Positions 22,167-28,595 of a stretch of DNA of 64,000 bases are shown piece after piece; the first letter of the stretch is position 1, and each line of letters opens with the position of its first letter. A model generated the notes under the pieces. The model did not search any database. It was not told the DNA's origin and saw only the letters and a program-made list of their open reading frames with translations. Both the position numbers and the translations under genes were made by a program. This DNA is from an uncultured Chloroflexia bacterium (lineage in GTDB: Bacteria; Chloroflexota; Anaerolineae; CG2-30-64-16). The stretch covers positions 1,442,021-1,506,020 of the forward strand of contig CAVZDU010000001.1 in the NCBI GenBank assembly GCA_963774265.1, given 5' to 3'.

Positions 22167-23189
22167 CTACGGCGCGCGCCATTCATGCGGAATGCCCTTC
22201 GCGTCCAGCGCTGCTTCGTACTCTTTTAGATTGGCTGCAGTCACCACGTCTACGCCGGTGTCAATCACGCCATTCACTGCACTCATCTCCGACAGTGCAG
22301 CCGTCGCACCTTTCTCGGCCATCAGCTTGATAAGCTGGACTGATTTGTAGCCCATGTTGTATTCGCGCTGGGCAATCGTGGCCGCGATGATGCCCATCTG
22401 GACACCGTGGATGATATCTGTCGTGGCATCGAATGTAATCAGCTTGATCTCACCTGCTGCGTCTGCATCTTGGATCGCTGTGACCCATGCTGGTCCGGTA
22501 GCGGCGTAAACCGCAAAGGCGCCGGCGAGGTCCGGATTGGCGGAGATGGTGGAACTGGCCAACTCCAGAGCGGTCGAGGGGTCCTCGCGATCGTTATAGG
22601 CCGCCAAAGCGACGATGCCTGATCCCGCGATGGCCGACAGAAATCCCTCTGTTCGTTGTAGTGCGTTTCGGGCCGTGTCGGAGCCGCGGCCGATGCCCAC
22701 CTTGCCACCCCGTGGCAGCAGATCGACCATCTTCTTTCCGGCGATCTTTCCGGCGTTGACATTGTCGGTGCCGATATAGGCGAGAGATGCGCTTCCGTCC
22801 ACGGGGGGCGTGTCCAAGGTGATGACGAGGATGCCCACCTCACTTGCTTTTCGGATAAAGGGCTCCAGTGCCAGAGGATCCGACGGCGCAATTGCAATTC
22901 CGGTGACCCGTTGGGCAATATAGGTCTCTAGGGTCTGGATTTGAGCAGCCACGTCTTCTTTAGGCGGGACAAAGAAGGCTGTCTGGACGCCCAACTCCGT
23001 TCCGGCAGCTTTCACACCGGCCTCAACGTTTGACCAATACGGGTGCACGGATTTGCCGATTACCACAATCTTCAGCGCCTCGGTTTTTCTCGCTGGGGCA
23101 CACGCAGCAACACAGCCACCGGCCAACAGCACGCACAGCATGAGTGTCATTAGTTTGGACAGGCGCTTCGGCATCGTCTTGTTCTCCAT
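22167..23189 (-). CDS. Monosaccharide ABC substrate-binding lipoprotein (glucose/xylose-binding type)
   Basis: Signal peptide with Cys; [28 protein letters not shown] recall the Thermotoga glucose/xylose-binding protein. Confidence 0.88.
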
Positions 23190-23195
23190 CGCGCG

Positions 23196-23328
23196 ATCAT
23201 ACTACTGCCATTGCTTGCATACAAACCGGTGAATGCCCCTGAGGGGATTTCCCCTAACACAATATCGGGTTTTTGCCCCAAGCGCCGTCCACGTTGTCGT
23301 TTGCCTGGCGCGCCTGAGATGCTATAAT
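23196..23328. promoter_or_regulatory. Divergent promoter region with central palindrome AGGGG-ATTT-CCCCT (23242-23255)
   Basis: Minus strand TTGTAT-N17-TATGAT; plus strand TGCTATAAT (23320-23328); each -10 lies 6 nt before an ATG. Confidence 0.7.
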
Positions 23329-23334
23329 CTGGCC

Positions 23335-24393
23335 ATGAATGGGACCACCATAGGCAATGTGCGTGTTGTGCTGGCGGATGACCATGCTGTGGTACACGCG
23401 GGCATCGGAAACGCGCTGCGTGAACTCCAGAGTCTCGAGATCGTGGGCGAAGCGGATGATGGGCCCTCCCTCTTCGTCGCGTTGGATACGCTACGTCCCG
23501 ATCTCCTACTCATTGACGTCACGATGCCCGACTTTGAGCCAGTATCCGCGATTCGCTCGATTCGCGGTCGTTATCCCCTTATGAAGATCCTTGTCGTGAG
23601 TGCATATGACGATGATGCATACGTGCAGGGGTTGCTCGGTGCCGGAGTAAATGGATATCACTTGAAAGACCGTTCGCTGAACGAGCTCAAGCTGGCAGTG
23701 CAGCGGGTCCTCGACGGCGATCGGTGGATTTCCAGCAATCTCATTGACAAGTTGCTCAGCTACAACGAGGTCTACCCCTCCGCCTCGATGCTCACGTCGC
23801 GCCAGCAGGAACTCCTGCGGTTGTTGTTGCAGGGCCTGGATAACCAGAACCTAGCGCGTGAGACTGGCTTGAGCGTGAAAACTATCGAGAACCACCTCAC
23901 CCGCATCTATCGACAACTCAACGTTCAGAGCCGGTTGGAAGCAGTCCACTATGTTAGGGAGCACCCGGAAGTGCTCGCTGCCTCGGTAACTCCTGCCGCA
24001 GCCACAGCCGAGTTGCTTCCCCAGAACCGGCTCACGGTAATGCTGGTAGATGACAACGCGCGATATCGCGGACAACTGCGGCGAGTGATCAGCCGGCTCT
24101 ACCCGCATGCAATCATGTGCGAGGCGGGCGCCACCCAAGAGGCCTTGAAACTGGGTGAACAGATTCGCCCACAACTCGCGCTGGTGGATGTCATCCTCGG
24201 TGACGAGGATGGCATCCGTTGTGCGCGGCGGCTCAAAGGGCTGCTGCCTCAGCTGCGAGTGGTGCTGATTACTGCCTATCCGGACCGTGAGTTCCGGCGT
24301 TTGGGCATGGAGGCCGGCGCGGTTGCGTTGCTTGACAAGAAAGACCTGGACGTCTCCACAATGCGCCAGATGATTGATGATGTACTCGCATAG
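23335..24393 (+). CDS. NarL/LuxR-family response regulator, REC-HTH-REC
   Basis: REC1 (ADDH, IDVTMP), LuxR HTH (LTSRQ...SVKTIENHLTRIY), REC2 (VDDN, VDVIL, ITAY). Confidence 0.9.
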   Translation: MNGTTIGNVRVVLADDHAVVHAGIGNALRELQSLEIVGEADDGPSLFVALDTLRPDLLLIDVTMPDFEPVSAIRSIRGRYPLMKILVVSAYDDDAYVQGLLGAGVNGYHLKDRSLNELKLAVQRVLDGDRWISSNLIDKLLSYNEVYPSASMLTSRQQELLRLLLQGLDNQNLARETGLSVKTIENHLTRIYRQLNVQSRLEAVHYVREHPEVLAASVTPAAATAELLPQNRLTVMLVDDNARYRGQLRRVISRLYPHAIMCEAGATQEALKLGEQIRPQLALVDVILGDEDGIRCARRLKGLLPQLRVVLITAYPDREFRRLGMEAGAVALLDKKDLDVSTMRQMIDDVLA

Positions 24394-24425
24394 CTGTGCA
24401 CGACTTCGAGACCCCGTGCGGAGGG

Positions 24426-25475
24426 ATGCCGGTGACTGACGCCCCAACGGCTGCGCCCCCCGAATCGTTCTCAACGCCTGCGCGCCGCTTCTTACTCGAT
24501 CGCTTTTGGCAGGGCAATGCTGGCCGCCAGATTTTCGTCGCAGCATTTCTGTTTCTCCTTATTGTGACCTTATTCAGCCTCAGTTCGGATGCTTTCCTGC
24601 GCTCAAAGAATCTGGCGAATCTTTCTCGAAGTTTCTCGTGGCTGGCCATTGTCGCGATCGGCCAGAGCATGGTTATCATCATGGGCGGGATAGACCTGTC
24701 CGTCGGTGCGACGATGGCCCTGGCAGGACTGGTGGCTGGTCGTTGCATGCAACTTGGTTTTCCGATAACCCTGGCCATCCTGCTGGGGCTACTGGTCGGC
24801 GTCGTTATTGGCTGGTTCAATGGTGTCCTGGTCGCCCGTTTTCACCTGCCTGCATTCGTAGTCACCCTGGGGACGATGGGTATTCAGCGCGGTTTTGCAT
24901 TCGGCCTAACCGGCGGCTGGTCGGTCACCAACATGCCCGAAGCGTTCCTGCAGTTGGGTCAGTCGGATATTGTGCTTGGTCCGTGGATTGTGCCGGTTCC
25001 GCTGCTGATCACCCTGACGGTGGCCCTTTTGCTCAGCCTGTTCTTGCGGCGAACTGTCATGGGCGGCGACATCTATGCGATGAGCAGCGGCGAGCGAGCG
25101 CTGCTTGTGTCCGGCGTTAACGTGATGCGCCTCAAGGTCTTCGTTTACACTTTGTGTGGCTTGCTGGCGGCTGCCGGCGGATTGCTCCTGGCAGCACGCC
25201 TCGGCGTGGCGGCCCCTGCCGCTGCCGTTGGCACTGAGGTCGATGTGGTGGCGGCGGCCGTCATCGGCGGGGCCAGCCTGTTTGGGGGCGTCGGCAGCAT
25301 CCTGGGGGTACTCCTTGGCGCGGCCATCACCCAGATGCTGAACAACGGCCTCATCCTGCTTGGTTACCCTTCCTACTGGCAGACAGCGGCGATCTGCGCG
25401 CTGATGCTGGTAACGGTCCTTCTCGATTACTGGCGGCGGCAACGCCAGGTGGCAGCGCACGGAACCTCTCCTTAA
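24426..25475 (+). CDS. RbsC-like sugar ABC permease with degenerate EAA loop
   Basis: GGIDLSVG, PAFVVTLG, IGGASLFGGVGS; coupling loop reads IYAMSSGERALLVSGVNV. Confidence 0.88.
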   Translation: MPVTDAPTAAPPESFSTPARRFLLDRFWQGNAGRQIFVAAFLFLLIVTLFSLSSDAFLRSKNLANLSRSFSWLAIVAIGQSMVIIMGGIDLSVGATMALAGLVAGRCMQLGFPITLAILLGLLVGVVIGWFNGVLVARFHLPAFVVTLGTMGIQRGFAFGLTGGWSVTNMPEAFLQLGQSDIVLGPWIVPVPLLITLTVALLLSLFLRRTVMGGDIYAMSSGERALLVSGVNVMRLKVFVYTLCGLLAAAGGLLLAARLGVAAPAAAVGTEVDVVAAAVIGGASLFGGVGSILGVLLGAAITQMLNNGLILLGYPSYWQTAAICALMLVTVLLDYWRRQRQVAAHGTSP

Positions 25476-27060
25476 AGCCCGCAATCTGTCGCTGAGCATC
25501 GGCACGCTGCCGCTGATTCACGAGGTGAGCCTCGAAATCTTACCCGGCGAGGTGTTGGGCGTCGCGGGTCAGAGTGGGGCAGGGAAGTCGGTGCTGGCGA
25601 TGCTGCTTGCCGGTGTCCAGACACCCGATGCTGGTGAGCTTGTGTTTGCCGGACGACGGCTAGACTGGCCTTTCCGTGCTCGCAATCTTGGAATCGAAGT
25701 CGTTCACCAGCAACCGGAGATGGTTGAAGGGTTAGACATAACGGGCAACGTGTTCCTGGGAAACGAGTTGGGCTGGTCGCCGTGGGGCCGCTGGCTGCGC
25801 GTGCCCGACCGTCGACGCATGGACGTCGAAGCCGCGCGCATCCTTGCTGATCTGGGGATGCGGTATCATTCCCTGCGTGAACGGGTGTCTAACCTGACGG
25901 GCGAGCAGCGGCAACTTATCGCCATTGCACGCGCAATGACGCATCCCGCCCGGCTCATCATTATTGACGACCCAGGTCTTTTGTTGAGCTATCCCTACCA
26001 ACAGAAGTTGCTTTCGTTGATCCAGGCGTGGCGTAGCCAGGGCGCCGCCGTGCTCTACGGCAGCGACAATGTCGATCATCTCATGGCCGTCACCGATCGT
26101 ATCCTGGTCCTCCGCCACGGCCGCTGCATCGCACAGCGCGTCACCGAGGAGACGGATCGCGAGCAGATCTTGGCCGCCTCGGTTGGTGCAGCGGACCAGC
26201 AGGAGTTGACGCCGATCATCTGGGCCCTGGACAGCTATTATCGGGCCAGGGAGCAGGCGGAGAAGCTCAGCAGCCGGCAGAAGGTGTTGGAGCGCGATCT
26301 TGGCGCACCGGAGTTGAACCGGCAGATCATCGACCAGTTGGCCGATCAGGTTAACGTGCTTGACCGGGCGAACGCGGCCCTACAGGAGGCACAACGCCGG
26401 CTGTTATCCGAGCTCGAGCTGGAGCGCAAGCGACTCGCCCGCGAGATCCACGACCAGGTCATCCAGGATCTGCTGGCGGTGGGCTATCAGCTGGAAGAGC
26501 TCGAGTCGGGCCCTGCCGTGACGCCCAGGCTCGAGGAAGAGCTGCAGAGCGTGCGGGCTGATGTGCGCAACGCGGTGAGCGACCTGCGCAACATCTGCGG
26601 CGAGTTGCGCCCGCCGACCATCGACAGCCTGGGGCTAGGACCGGCGCTGCAGTCCTTTGTGCACGAGTGGAGCAAGCGTACCGGCATTGCAGTCAGCATG
26701 GTGCTCGACCCTAATCTGGGACGCCTGCCGGAGTCGACTGAGTTGTCGATCTTCCGCATCGTGCAGGAAGGGCTCAACAACGTGCGCAAGCACGCCGCCG
26801 CGCAGCAGGTCGACATTCAGCTCAAGCATACCTCTCCTCGACGCCTCCTGCTCACCATCGCCGACGACGGCCGGGGCCTGGCTCCGGACTTTGATCCTTC
26901 GCAGCTGTCGGCCGAAGGACACTATGGGCTATCCAGTATCAGCGAGCGTGTGGCTCTCCTGGGCGGGCGTTGGAAGCTCCAGAACCGGCCCGAGGGGGGC
27001 GCACTCATCCAGGCCGAAATCCCACATCCGCGCATTGAGCCAACCTCCCCGGATAGCTGA
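25459..27060 (+). CDS. Degenerate ABC nucleotide-binding domain fused to HisKA_3/HATPase histidine kinase
   Basis: Walker A GQSGAGKS, LTGEQ, IIIDDPG; H-box RLAREIHDQ, EGLNNVRKH, DDGRG, GHYGL; no TM segments. Start uncertain: ACG at 25459 vs GTG at 25525. Confidence 0.88.
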   Translation, partial: TEPLLKARNLSLSIGTLPLIHEVSLEILPGEVLGVAGQSGAGKSVLAMLLAGVQTPDAGELVFAGRRLDWPFRARNLGIEVVHQQPEMVEGLDITGNVFLGNELGWSPWGRWLRVPDRRRMDVEAARILADLGMRYHSLRERVSNLTGEQRQLIAIARAMTHPARLIIIDDPGLLLSYPYQQKLLSLIQAWRSQGAAVLYGSDNVDHLMAVTDRILVLRHGRCIAQRVTEETDREQILAASVGAADQQELTPIIWALDSYYRAREQAEKLSSRQKVLERDLGAPELNRQIIDQLADQVNVLDRANAALQEAQRRLLSELELERKRLAREIHDQVIQDLLAVGYQLEELESGPAVTPRLEEELQSVRADVRNAVSDLRNICGELRPPTIDSLGLGPALQSFVHEWSKRTGIAVSMVLDPNLGRLPESTELSIFRIVQEGLNNVRKHAAAQQVDIQLKHTSPRRLLLTIADDGRGLAPDFDPSQLSAEGHYGLSSISERVALLGGRWKLQNRPEGGALIQAEIPHPRIEPTSPDS

Positions 27061-27105
27061 GCTCACTGGACGGCGAGCGCGGCGTGCAGGCGCGGCGCCT
27101 GAGAT

Positions 27106-27192
27106 AGGGGTTCCCCCCATTTCGGTTGAGGCAAGTCCGACACAGCCAATCCAATTTTTGGACTGCACGCGTTTTGGTAATCGTGTTATAAT
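27106..27192 (+). promoter_or_regulatory. Promoter of first sugar ABC operon with upstream palindrome
   Basis: AGGGG-TTCC-CCCCA (27106-27119); TGTTATAAT (27184-27192). Confidence 0.7.
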
Positions 27193-27280: not shown

Positions 27281-28414
27281 ATGAAGTCCAAGTTCATGTT
27301 GATCGTCTCGCTGATTTTGATCGTGACCACGCTGTTTGGCTGCGGTGGTGCCGCGACGCCGGCGGCCGCCCCTGCCGCGCAGCAACCGGCCGCCGGTGGC
27401 GGAGGAGCAACCAAAGGGTCGGTCGGCGTCATCCTGCCGACCAAGGATGAGCCGCGCTGGCTGCAAGACCAGGCCGTCTTCCTCAAGGCCGGCTGGACCC
27501 CCCTGTTCAGCCAGGGTGACTCGGCCAAGGAAAAGGCCAACGTCGAGGCCTTGATCAGCCAGGGCATCAAAGTCCTGATCATTTGCCCGCAGGATGCTGT
27601 CGCCGCAGCCGCGGCCGCATCGGCTGCCAAGGCCGCCGGCATCAAGGTCATTTCCTATGACCGCCTGATCCGCGACACCGATGCCGTCGATTACTATGTG
27701 ACGTTCGACAGCATGGCGGTGGGTGCGGCCTGGAGCGAGTACCTGATCAAGCAGGCCGGCGACACCAAGGGCAATCCGCTCTATCTGTATGCGGGTGCAT
27801 CCACCGACAACAACGCCTTCATCTTCTTCGAAGGCGCCTGGGAGAAGATCCAGCCCAAGATCGCCGATGGCACCTTCGTCATCAAGAACTCCAGCGAGGC
27901 CGTCGCTCTCCAGGCCAAGCCCACGCTGACCCGCGATGAAGAGGCCAAGATCATCGGTCAGGTCACCACCAACTGGGACTTCAATACCGCTAAGGGCCTC
28001 ACCGAGGCTAACCTGACCAAGGCTACCGCTGCCGACAAGGGCACCGTCTACATCCTCGGCCCCAACGATGGCACCTCTCGCGCCATCGCTGACGCCTTCG
28101 CCTCGGACAAGGAGGTCAAGAAGTACTTCGTCACCGGTCAGGACGCCGAGAAGGCCTCCGTCCAGTACATCATCGACGGCAAGCAGTCGATGACCGTCTT
28201 CAAGGACGTCCGCACCCTGGCGGCCGACGCCGTCGCCGCGGCCAATGCCTTCCTCGCCGGTAAGACCCCGGAGAAGACAACGACCTACAACAACGGTAAG
28301 ATCGATGTTCCGGCGAAGCCGTCTGCGATCGTCACCGTCACCAAGGACAACGTCAAGGCAGCCTTGATCGACTCCGGCTATTACCAGGCCGGCGACTTCA
28401 CGGGCTTGCAGTAA
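27281..28414 (+). CDS. ChvE/XylF-like monosaccharide-binding lipoprotein
   Basis: AGGAGG RBS, lipobox LFGC, LPTKDEPRW, SYDRLI, DNNA, GQDA, TVFKD. Confidence 0.92.
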   Translation: MKSKFMLIVSLILIVTTLFGCGGAATPAAAPAAQQPAAGGGGATKGSVGVILPTKDEPRWLQDQAVFLKAGWTPLFSQGDSAKEKANVEALISQGIKVLIICPQDAVAAAAAASAAKAAGIKVISYDRLIRDTDAVDYYVTFDSMAVGAAWSEYLIKQAGDTKGNPLYLYAGASTDNNAFIFFEGAWEKIQPKIADGTFVIKNSSEAVALQAKPTLTRDEEAKIIGQVTTNWDFNTAKGLTEANLTKATAADKGTVYILGPNDGTSRAIADAFASDKEVKKYFVTGQDAEKASVQYIIDGKQSMTVFKDVRTLAADAVAAANAFLAGKTPEKTTTYNNGKIDVPAKPSAIVTVTKDNVKAALIDSGYYQAGDFTGLQ

Positions 28415-28423
28415 CAGATCGTC

Positions 28424-28541
28424 CTTCCCCCTCTCCCGCAACCCTGAGCGAAGCGAAGGGCCGGGAGAGGGGGAGGCAGCCCTACCGAGGCAGGGTTATT
28501 GCGAACGCACTCTGCGGCTGATTTGCGCAAGTCAGCCGCAG
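28424..28541 (+). repeat. Two intergenic hairpins (REP-like or mRNA-stabilising) after the binding-protein gene
   Basis: CCCCCTCTCCCG...CGGGAGAGGGGG (28424-28476); CTGCGGCTGA...TCAGCCGCAG (28512-28541). Confidence 0.7.
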
Positions 28542-28595
28542 TAGAACAGGGACAGAACTGGACCCTCATGTTTCACTTCGTCAGGAGTTAGCGCC

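Follow-up and report, generated by a model that had tools for sequence, protein, structure and literature searches.

Gene content of the module

The window analysed here is a 64,000-nucleotide stretch of a contig from an uncultured Chloroflexia bacterium, with positions counted from its first letter. Between positions 22167 and 27060 it encodes a four-gene module that combines parts of a sugar importer with a two-component system. The last of the four genes joins the nucleotide-binding domain (NBD) of an ATP-binding cassette (ABC) transporter to a histidine kinase in a single protein, hereafter the NBD-kinase. The first-pass annotation of this DNA had proposed a module of a binding lipoprotein, a REC-helix-turn-helix (HTH)-REC regulator, an RbsC-like permease and a soluble NBD-kinase, and open reading frame (ORF) calling with Pfam recovered all four genes with the expected domains.

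The sugar-binding protein, a probable lipoprotein (22167-23189, minus strand; Peripla_BP_4, E 3.7e-54), is encoded divergently from the other three genes. NCBIfam places it nearest to the models for rhizopine, allose and ribose binding proteins, each scoring far under its cut-off (102 vs 420 bits), and orthologues with 60-68% identity adjoin the regulator gene in loci arranged like the window. On the plus strand follow the regulator ORF (23233-24393, likely coding 23335-24393), which has two Response_reg stretches around a GerE (LuxR HTH) domain, and the gene for a dedicated RbsC/GguB-like permease (24396-25475; BPD_transp_2, 132.8 bits with a cut-off of 26.8, E 1.7e-38). The permease reaches no named equivalog; its nearest NCBIfam models are GguB (197.3 bits, cut-off 450), RbsC (195.8, cut-off 398) and AraH. 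The NBD-kinase ORF was called from a GTG at 25525 (25525-27060, plus strand) and contains ABC_tran (78.5 bits), HisKA_3 (52.9 bits) and HATPase_c (40 bits) domains. Pfam annotation of the module revealed no ATPase gene besides the fused NBD.

Conservation and architecture of the NBD-kinase

The fusion is upheld by its homologues. ABC_tran, HisKA_3 and HATPase_c (PF00005, PF07730 and PF02518) were all present in 119 of the 120 best database clusters at 90% identity, including the one that holds the protein of the window itself. The exception, 473 residues long, is a fragment that has two domains, and identities across clusters range from 65 to 89%. The homologues carry no annotation in their source records beyond "ATP-binding cassette domain-containing protein", "histidine kinase" and "signal transduction histidine kinase". 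Relatives are encoded in 199 species genomes of a library with one genome per species, and from these we kept 80 loci for comparison; motif counts below cover the window and these loci (n = 81). All 80 belong to the Chloroflexota, spread over Anaerolineae, Caldilineae, Ardenticatenaceae, Promineifilaceae, Roseiflexaceae, Thermoflexia and Limnocylindrales. When the phylum was sampled evenly, 23 of 301 genomes, the source genome included, had one full-length copy, and these were clustered in a few families (for example, 12 of 18 genomes in one). At 50% identity, clustering reduced the full-length family to a handful of representatives.

Three parts can be distinguished in the protein, numbered here from position 25459 for reasons given below. 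The ABC NBD (residues 1-243; 25459-26187, plus strand) was recognised by Pfam, by a confident AlphaFold2 model (pLDDT about 90 over residues 1-242) and by Foldseek, with ABC ATPases as best structural matches (E 1.5e-17 and weaker). Its PF00005 score of 78.5 bits lies well above the gathering score of 25. The nearest NCBIfam models are the N-terminal halves of XylG, RbsA and AraG, all far under their equivalog cut-offs. A helical linker (26188-26421, plus strand) starts with a nearly invariant TPIIWALDSYYR and runs into the DHp helix. The HisKA_3 and HATPase_c domains occupy 26422-27060 (plus strand), with the phospho-acceptor His331 at 26449-26451.

Conservation is strong in the linker and the kinase. 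In an alignment of 60 sequences, the linker columns W255 and A256-R262 are invariant or near-invariant, and the kinase residues H331, D332, E437, N441, H445, D469, G471, G473 and G490 are invariant. The protein thus has what defines a HisKA_3-type kinase, a phospho-acceptor His together with the N and G boxes of HATPase_c. The nearest NCBIfam models of the kinase part are MctS, LiaS, UhpB and NarX, all far under their equivalog cut-offs. The AlphaFold2 model, built from the same 60 sequences, shows a confident NBD (1-242), helices at 244-280 and 285-349, the latter bearing His331, a second DHp helix and a confident catalytic domain; as a monomer, the two linker helices are modelled with low confidence. 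Among the matches listed in a search of the Protein Data Bank, the NBD part alone of the fusion aligned with solved chains.

The kinase had been described as lacking a transmembrane (TM) segment or any other sensor domain, and this holds. The highest 19-residue Kyte-Doolittle mean of the NBD-kinase is 1.33, compared with seven windows of at least 1.6 in the permease. By Pfam, hydropathy and AlphaFold2, no membrane-spanning or other recognised sensor domain lies N-terminal to the DHp helix besides the NBD.

Start codon of the window copy

At the N-terminus, homologues of the NBD-kinase extend some 22 residues further, with M[EA]PLL as the first residues in 10 of 10 that were fetched; the called GTG start at 25525 omits this stretch. 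The reading frame is open 5' of 25525, where it reads RTEPLLKARNLSLS, and the homologous start codon is therefore ACG (25459-25461). This ACG follows a Shine-Dalgarno-like AGGTGG (25447-25452) after a 6-nucleotide spacer (25447-25461 in all, plus strand), at the position of the ATG or GTG start of the homologues, and lies 17 bases within the end of the permease gene, whose stop codon TAA is at 25473-25475. Between the upstream stop and 25525, the frame contains no ATG, GTG or TTG. At the same position, the 80 related loci mostly have Met and sometimes Val (GTG). Beyond the start, the 533-codon frame is intact, and its closest homologues show 87-89% identity.

The ACG may reflect a true mutation, serve as a weak start or stem from an assembly error. 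The source genome is 84% complete in 10 contigs and has a single copy of the NBD-kinase. Public contigs from four runs (85% likeness) include none that spans 25410-25511, the region with the ACG and the permease/kinase junction. Small shares of the sampled words, none above 0.12, are found in 13 runs, and the list includes no RNA run. A triple fusion of permease, NBD and kinase through a frameshift was also considered and rejected: each homologue has a gene to itself, with a product of 519-552 residues that begins M[EA]PLL, in a search that did not extend to a longer length class.

Catalytic motifs of the NBD

The NBD motifs quoted in the first-pass annotation (GQSGAGKS, LTGEQ, DDPG and GSDN) are all found in the translation. 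Walker A (GQSGAGKS) is intact and the Q-loop Gln is present (HQQPE). The signature reads LTGEQ rather than LSGGQ, Walker B reads IIIDDPG and has lost the catalytic Glu, the H-loop reads GSDN (YGSDNVDH) and has lost the switch His, and Ile replaces the aromatic residue of the A-loop.

These changes are not equally general in the family, and the idea that homologues share the degeneracy stands for two of the motifs and fails for a third. The Walker A Lys is retained in 78 of 80 members and the Q-loop Gln in most, in the context HQxP. Signature position 4 is Glu in all 81 sequences (LSxE[QK]RQ). The H-loop His is found in 1 of 81, its place being taken by Asn (34), Asp (14), Gln (13) and others. 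The catalytic position after Walker B, in contrast, is Asp in 49, Glu in 26, Asn in 5 and Ser in 1. The consistent hallmarks of the family are thus a missing switch His and an acidic residue in the signature, while loss of the catalytic Glu is common, and holds for the window copy, yet is no universal trait. On trees of the linker-plus-kinase part, including one from IQ-TREE, the state of the catalytic Glu switches 7-8 times, as expected if hydrolysis is dispensable.

The ATPases of neighbouring transporters are canonical. Tandem ATPases read GENGAGKS, LDEPT and ISH in their N halves and GxxGxGRT, LSGGNQQ, DDPT and ISS in their C halves; neighbouring single-NBD ATPases are fully canonical (GDNGAGKS, LSGGQRQ, DEPT, ISH), and the H-loop of canonical neighbours reads ISH or ITH. 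Sixteen single-NBD ATPases of about 250-300 residues (L029:2500-3255, L062:4705-5406, L079:4641-5396 and 13 more), with GDN[GA]AGKS, LSGGQRQ, DEPT and ISH, were seen in the loci, as opposed to the tandem type of about 510 residues. The fused NBD is nearest to such single-NBD sugar ATPases, with mean scores of 133-158 bits compared with 102-123 for the N halves and 65-82 for the C halves of tandem ATPases. Single-NBD sugar ATPases presumably act as homodimers, and closeness to this type fits a homodimeric origin of the fused NBD and a symmetric 2:2 complex with a homodimeric kinase.

In MalK, HisP and HlyB, replacing the H-loop His leaves almost no hydrolysis. Signature position 4 is that of CFTR G551, where the acidic change G551D blocks ATP-driven NBD closure. 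From the H-loop loss and the acidic signature residue together we therefore infer that the NBD would bind nucleotide without cycling, that is, bind ATP and not turn it over.

A distinct cytoplasmic loop in the permease

The loop between TM6 and TM7 of the window permease reads YAMSSGERALLVSG, compared with YAIGGNPEAAQLSG in the permease at 31280. This loop had been called degenerate, a description that the comparison contradicts. Among permeases encoded ahead of the fused gene, 37 without an ATPase gene at their side share the loop Y[AT]L[GSA]x[SG]ERALLVSG (SERAL type), with Glu in 36, Arg in 28, Ala in 36 and Leu in 37 of the 37. The 42 permeases with an ATPase gene share YA[VI]GGNxEAAxxSG, in which the two Gly are found in 42 and 40, Asn in 38, Glu in 37 and the two Ala in 41 and 38. 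The permease loop is re-specified, not decayed, judging from these consensus sequences. That a conserved loop of a different kind occurs in exactly the permeases without an ATPase gene is the strongest indirect argument for a distinct NBD partner. Six permeases adjoining the fused gene retain the canonical loop, and their NBD-kinases keep DEPT in 5 of 6 cases. The module's own permease keeps 60-70% identity across the window's clade.

With AlphaFold2 (pLDDT 83.4), the permease is modelled with short helices at 221-229 and 233-238 (ERALLV) between the TM helices 201-219 and 243-269. With the Arg-rich N- and C-termini taken as cytoplasmic, the modelled TM6-TM7 loop would be cytoplasmic. The loop at this place in the membrane domains of type II importers contacts the NBD. 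Foldseek matches of the model are weak, and the best are type II importer membrane domains: BtuC (E 4.6e-3, TM-score 0.47), then PsaC, HI1471 and HmuU. In the Protein Data Bank, a search brought up no sequence homologue for this permease.

The residue after the Q-loop Gln, which is Glu or Asp in canonical ATPases, was compared with the type of permease. It is Glu in 0 of 38 NBD-kinases whose permease is of the SERAL type, in 17 of the 26 that lack an own permease and in 3 of the 6 next to a canonical-loop permease. Strong in raw counts, this covariation comes down on the tree to 1 independent pair on supported branches and 6 on all branches (the same 6 with IQ-TREE), so few that a sign test cannot reach significance. 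As independent support it was dropped for having too few independent changes.

Gene neighbourhood

Gene order was counted in the 71 of 80 loci with at least 1.3 kb of upstream DNA. A permease gene on the same strand lies immediately 5' of the fused gene in 31, and a permease gene followed by a binding-protein gene in another 12, so that 43 of 71 have a permease at this place. In 26 loci it is the regulator gene that lies immediately 5', and in 2 something else. The commonest order is that of the window: binding protein, regulator, permease, NBD-kinase. In the window and in several loci, the start of the fused gene overlaps with the stop of the permease gene, and no ATPase gene adjoins the module permeases in the loci compared. 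The 26 regulator-first loci lack a permease gene of their own. This permease-less class forms essentially one clade on the tree. All locus classes are tied to CUT2-type sugar transporter genes.

Regulator, palindrome and putative target operons

Homologues of the regulator align from about residue 35-44 of the ORF 23233-24393, and the protein most likely starts at Met35 (ATG 23335). A promoter-like TTGCCT-16-TATAAT (23301-23328, plus strand; TG-extended, 10 of 12 matches) ends 7 nucleotides before this ATG, which implies a leaderless or near-leaderless mRNA. The regulator has the REC domain with acceptor Asp and the GerE domain of the NarL/FixJ family; the extra C-terminal REC is atypical of that family. 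In a 47-sequence alignment both REC domains retain the acidic pair, the acceptor Asp, Ser/Thr and Lys. The second, C-terminal REC is conserved family-wide with all phospho-acceptor residues, and it may be a phosphate sink, a second input or a dimerisation domain.

Three palindromes (no strand assigned) occur at promoter regions of the window. The first, AGGGGATTTCCCCTA (23242-23256), lies in the promoter region from which the binding-protein and regulator genes diverge and is the proposed operator. The second, TAGGGGTTCCCCCC (27105-27118), lies 45 nucleotides past the kinase stop and ahead of a ChvE-like gene, with a TATAAT at 27187-27192. The third, TAGGGGGTTTTCCCCTA (32703-32719), lies ahead of a XylF-like gene (ATG 32883), with a TATTAT at 32787-32792. 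Each is centred about 75-76 nucleotides upstream of its TATAAT or TATTAT hexamer, and a -35-like box is present only at the first of the three promoters.

Support for the palindrome comes from the related loci rather than from the window by itself. The pattern TAGGGG-N2-5-CCCC(TA) occurs within 260 nucleotides upstream of 42 of 55 regulator genes. Across 932 kb of loci, 44 of 56 sites fall in these 260-nucleotide regions, a density of 3.08 per kb compared with 0.013 per kb elsewhere. Several of the remaining sites are found just past the kinase gene, before the next transporter operon (L003, L004, L007, L010 and L059). Within the window, the shorter pattern AGGGG-N1-4-CCCC has 7 matches compared with 2.8 expected, which is not significant (6 of 100 shuffles reached as many). 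A further element, GCGCCTGAGAT, is common to the promoter region of the second palindrome and to 23310-23320; its 4 matches with at most one mismatch, compared with 2.5 expected, are likewise not significant alone. The palindrome is probably the operator of the regulator, and the system would then be autoregulated and would control the flanking uptake operons. This conserved palindrome, which in the window precedes the regulator gene and the two uptake operons farther downstream, is new in this analysis.

The first putative target operon (27281-32506, plus strand) encodes a ChvE-like binding protein (27281-28414), a GguA-like ATPase (28596-31157) and a GguB-like permease (31280-32506), which score 238, 750 and 418 bits with ChvE, GguA and GguB, all under the equivalog cut-offs. 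The GguA-like tandem ATPase is an 853-residue ORF that contains a ChvE-like stretch (residues 263-522, profile positions 68-320, without the signal-peptide part) between NBD1 and NBD2. The same order, NBD1-ChvE-like-NBD2, is found in an 875-residue ORF of an independent assembly (L002:7378-9918), and four representatives of 822-849 residues have two NBD matches. The insert may be a cytoplasmic sugar-sensing element in an ABC ATPase.

The second putative target operon (32883-39594, plus strand) encodes one or more XylF-type binding proteins, pieces of an ATPase, a GguB-like permease (36827-38029) and a xylulokinase (38052-38882 and 38776-39594). The xylF model scores 538.5 bits, above its cut-off of 389.55, and the N-terminal part of XylB scores 301 bits. 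Several of these genes are broken. The XylF-like gene begins at ATG 32883 in one frame (32883-33326) and continues in another (33265-35121), a 618-residue ORF with two binding-protein units; the ATPase is in pieces (35199-35789 and 36294-36806); and the xylulokinase is in overlapping N- and C-terminal ORFs. The split genes of this xylose cluster, together with 84% completeness in 10 contigs, suggest indel errors in the assembly or recent decay.

Proposed mechanism and alternatives

From the sequences and the models built on them, we propose that the module is probably a transporter-derived sugar receptor coupled to a two-component system, with the signal passing from binding protein to permease, pseudo-ATPase and kinase. 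The ligand-loaded binding lipoprotein would dock on a dimer of the dedicated RbsC-like permease. Its re-specified cytoplasmic loop (..SERALLVSG, the ERAL helices) would then reposition two nucleotide-bound, hydrolysis-impaired NBDs. The linker helices and the DHp dimer would tether the NBDs, so that their relative movement could travel via the WALDSYYR helix and shift the kinase/phosphatase balance at His331. The fused HisKA_3 kinase would phosphorylate the REC-GerE-REC regulator, which is predicted to bind the TAGGGG-N2-5-CCCC(TA) palindromes about 75 nucleotides upstream of -10 boxes and to activate its own operon, the gene of the sensor binding protein and the adjacent Ggu-like and Xyl-like uptake operons. 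The ligand would be a monosaccharide, perhaps xylose, and the physical contacts and the sign of regulation are proposed in the same conditional sense.

Earlier, this locus had been read as a receptor that induces the adjacent uptake operons, and that reading gains part of its support here. The conserved fusion, the order of permease and NBD-kinase, the H-loop loss and the palindrome link speak for it. Loop decay, general loss of the catalytic Glu and an obligatory permease do not survive. Several results weigh against the proposal. The catalytic Glu is retained in 26 of 81 members, and some may therefore hydrolyse ATP. A dedicated permease is not obligatory, since in 26 of 71 loci the regulator gene comes first and an own permease is lacking; a complete sugar ABC operon that includes its own ATPase stands head-to-head with at least 19 of them (verified by Pfam for L040). 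The covariation between Q-loop and permease type reflects about one independent event, the permease-less members forming essentially a single clade. The role of the permease loop as a coupling helix is read from an AlphaFold2 model and from the membrane domains of type II importers. The signature Glu, at the position of CFTR G551, makes the origin of a closure signal hard to explain. Finally, the window copy has ACG where homologues have ATG or GTG; its expression may be poor, or its product truncated should translation begin at GTG 25525.

This last point leads to an alternative that concerns the window copy and is independent of the others. Mutation of the start codon from ATG or GTG to ACG may have left this particular copy nonfunctional, either silent or translated into a truncated protein with a misfolded NBD, or the ACG may itself be an assembly error. 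The ACG stands exactly at the homologous start with no substitute before 25525, and the assembly contains the other broken genes noted above (xylulokinase, ATPase and XylF) at 84% completeness in 10 contigs. However, the remainder of the 533-codon frame is intact at 87-89% identity, and a good Shine-Dalgarno-like sequence is retained 6 nucleotides before the ACG. Near-cognate ACG is able to initiate translation at a low level. We consider a dead copy unlikely.

The second alternative, distinctly unlikely in our estimation, is a true transceptor. Binding protein, permease and NBD-kinase would form a slow but working importer, and the kinase would report transport cycles, that is flux, as in Bce-type modules. 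The module does hold a full importer set, and its NBDs keep the Walker A Lys (78 of 80), mostly the Q-loop Gln and in 26 of 81 the catalytic Glu; members behind a canonical-loop permease keep DEPT in 5 of 6. Set against this are the H-loop His, present in 1 of 81, and the signature Gly, replaced by Glu in 81 of 81. Changes at either residue nearly abolish ATPase activity or NBD closure. The window copy has in addition lost the catalytic Glu and the aromatic residue of the A-loop, and complete canonical uptake transporters adjoin the module.

The permease-less loci invite a third explanation, in which the neighbouring canonical transporter would be the partner: the NBD-kinase would dock on its permease, or pair with its ATPase, and read the transporter's occupancy, while the "dedicated" permease would be secondary or otherwise employed. 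This arrangement gains most plausibility in the permease-less clade. An own permease is missing from 26 of 71 loci, and at least 19 of these share the palindrome-bearing intergenic region with a complete transporter operon that diverges from them. The canonical Glu follows the Q-loop Gln in 17 of these 26 members, and many neighbouring transporters use the canonical single-NBD ATPases to which the fused NBD is nearest. As an account of the module in general it seems improbable. A permease kept at 60-70% identity in the window's clade, overlapping the fused gene and carrying a distinct loop, is hard to explain if it is not the partner, and the permease-less class, being one clade, may be a derived state.

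A soluble sensor of nucleotide or energy state, in which the NBD would bind ATP or ADP in the cytoplasm and set kinase activity without a membrane partner, agrees with a protein that is soluble by sequence, with the conserved Walker A and with the loci that have no permease of their own, but is very improbable given that every locus class is tied to sugar ABC transporter genes, that the permease gene overlaps the fused gene and that the Q-loop region, which faces the membrane domain in ABC transporters, is conserved as HQxP.

Other fusions of the NBD

A few other proteins join an ABC NBD to signalling domains. P0153, a single metagenomic protein, has an NBD of the same lineage (LSAEQRQ, no switch His, WALESYH) fused to TPR_MalT and GerE, a one-component form that fits the NBD as an input module. 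P0160 has a canonical NBD with PAS-HisKA_3-HATPase_c, and P0178 a canonical NBD with HisKA_3-HATPase_c. All three are singletons at 90% identity and are among the representatives at 50%. The architecture of P0153 was not found in the 301 genomes of the phylum sample, where NBD-kinase genes alone matched it, over residues 3 to about 313. A metagenome scan for its genomic context gave one locus, L091, with the TPR_MalT + GerE part only. We regard these proteins as leads for the cassette as a portable input domain.

Comparison with known systems

In Bce modules, a separate membrane kinase contacts an FtsX-type permease, hydrolysis by BceA drives signalling and there is no binding protein. The module described here differs in having a kinase fused to the NBD, a BPD_transp_2 permease that comes with a binding protein, and an NBD without the H-loop His (and, in this copy, without the catalytic Glu). 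The combination by which a Bce-type module would be recognised (FtsX permease, large extracellular domain, separate kinase, catalytic BceA) is thus not the one found. What the two share (for BceAB-BceS, PMC9169098 and bioRxiv 10.1101/2020.02.28.969956) is an ABC transporter that acts as sensor for a kinase without a ligand-binding domain of its own, and a two-component system that controls transporter genes.

Likeness of a second kind exists to XylFII-LytS-YesN, ChvE-VirA, LuxP-LuxQ and CBP-ChiS, in which a sugar-binding protein is the receptor and a neighbouring sugar ABC operon is induced (reviewed in PMC8050422). There the binding protein contacts a membrane-spanning kinase at its extracytoplasmic domain, whereas here the kinase is cytoplasmic and the permease and NBD are placed between the two. 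This review of binding proteins in signalling contains no passage with "ATPase" or "fused". With no TM segment, the NBD-kinase has no extracytoplasmic domain to receive a binding protein.

UhpABC offers a parallel for the conversion of a transporter into a receptor. The transporter paralogue UhpC is the receptor for the HisKA_3 kinase UhpB, which works with the NarL-type regulator UhpA; UhpC belongs to the major facilitator superfamily and UhpB is a membrane protein. Here, too, a transporter paralogue would have turned receptor, and UhpB and UhpA are among the NCBIfam matches of the kinase and the regulator. The ABC parts and the fusion are found in our module and in neither form in UhpABC.

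In MalK-MalT and PstSCAB-PhoU-PhoR, the state of an importer NBD is read by the transcription machinery; these are working transporters with catalytic NBDs and separate signalling partners, whereas in our module the partner is fused and the NBD is degenerate. MalK dimers are joined by their C-terminal domains while the NBDs open and close, and the linker/DHp dimer is proposed to join the NBDs here in a similar manner. A comparison may also be drawn with CFTR and SUR, eukaryotic exporter-fold ABC proteins with non-consensus nucleotide sites that gate or regulate channels and have no kinase output. Like them, the module is proposed to use an ABC chassis as a switch rather than a pump.

Kinases with fused transporter domains are also known. 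CbrA, with its SSS domain, and the 5TMR-LYT or S-component-fold kinases are described in PMC11109136 as membrane domains fused to a histidine kinase. Compared with what is described there, the present protein has a cytoplasmic ATP-binding cassette as the fused part, and its membrane domain is a separate gene. Full-text searches, whose scope did not extend to subscription journals, found no paper describing the NBD-kinase architecture, and in the text available to them both Pfam names occurred together only in one Streptomyces genomics preprint. The wiring of the NBD-kinase differs from that of all the systems compared here: the kinase is covalently joined to an ATP-binding cassette, while it is a permease paralogue, encoded separately, that spans the membrane.

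Implications

Known kinases borrow transporters as separate membrane proteins or through a fused membrane domain. If the receptor proposed here is real, the signal would cross the membrane via an importer scaffold and not via the kinase. The output of the kinase would then be a direct and assayable read-out of how docking of a binding protein affects NBD geometry, a long-debated step of importers.

More broadly, though we hold this only tentatively and it could well prove otherwise, ABC importer parts may be convertible wholesale into a transmembrane receptor, with a hydrolysis-dead NBD as a portable cytoplasmic input module that is wired here to a HisKA_3 kinase; in single metagenomic proteins, NBDs of this lineage or others are joined to MalT-TPR/LuxR or a PAS-kinase. 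The ABC cassette would in that case join the input domains of signalling proteins, and bacteria would have a counterpart of regulatory ABC proteins of the CFTR/SUR type. For uncultured Chloroflexota, which are common in soil, sediment and wastewater, the analysis provides a predicted regulon, in which a palindromic operator stands before the Ggu-like and Xyl-like sugar uptake operons.

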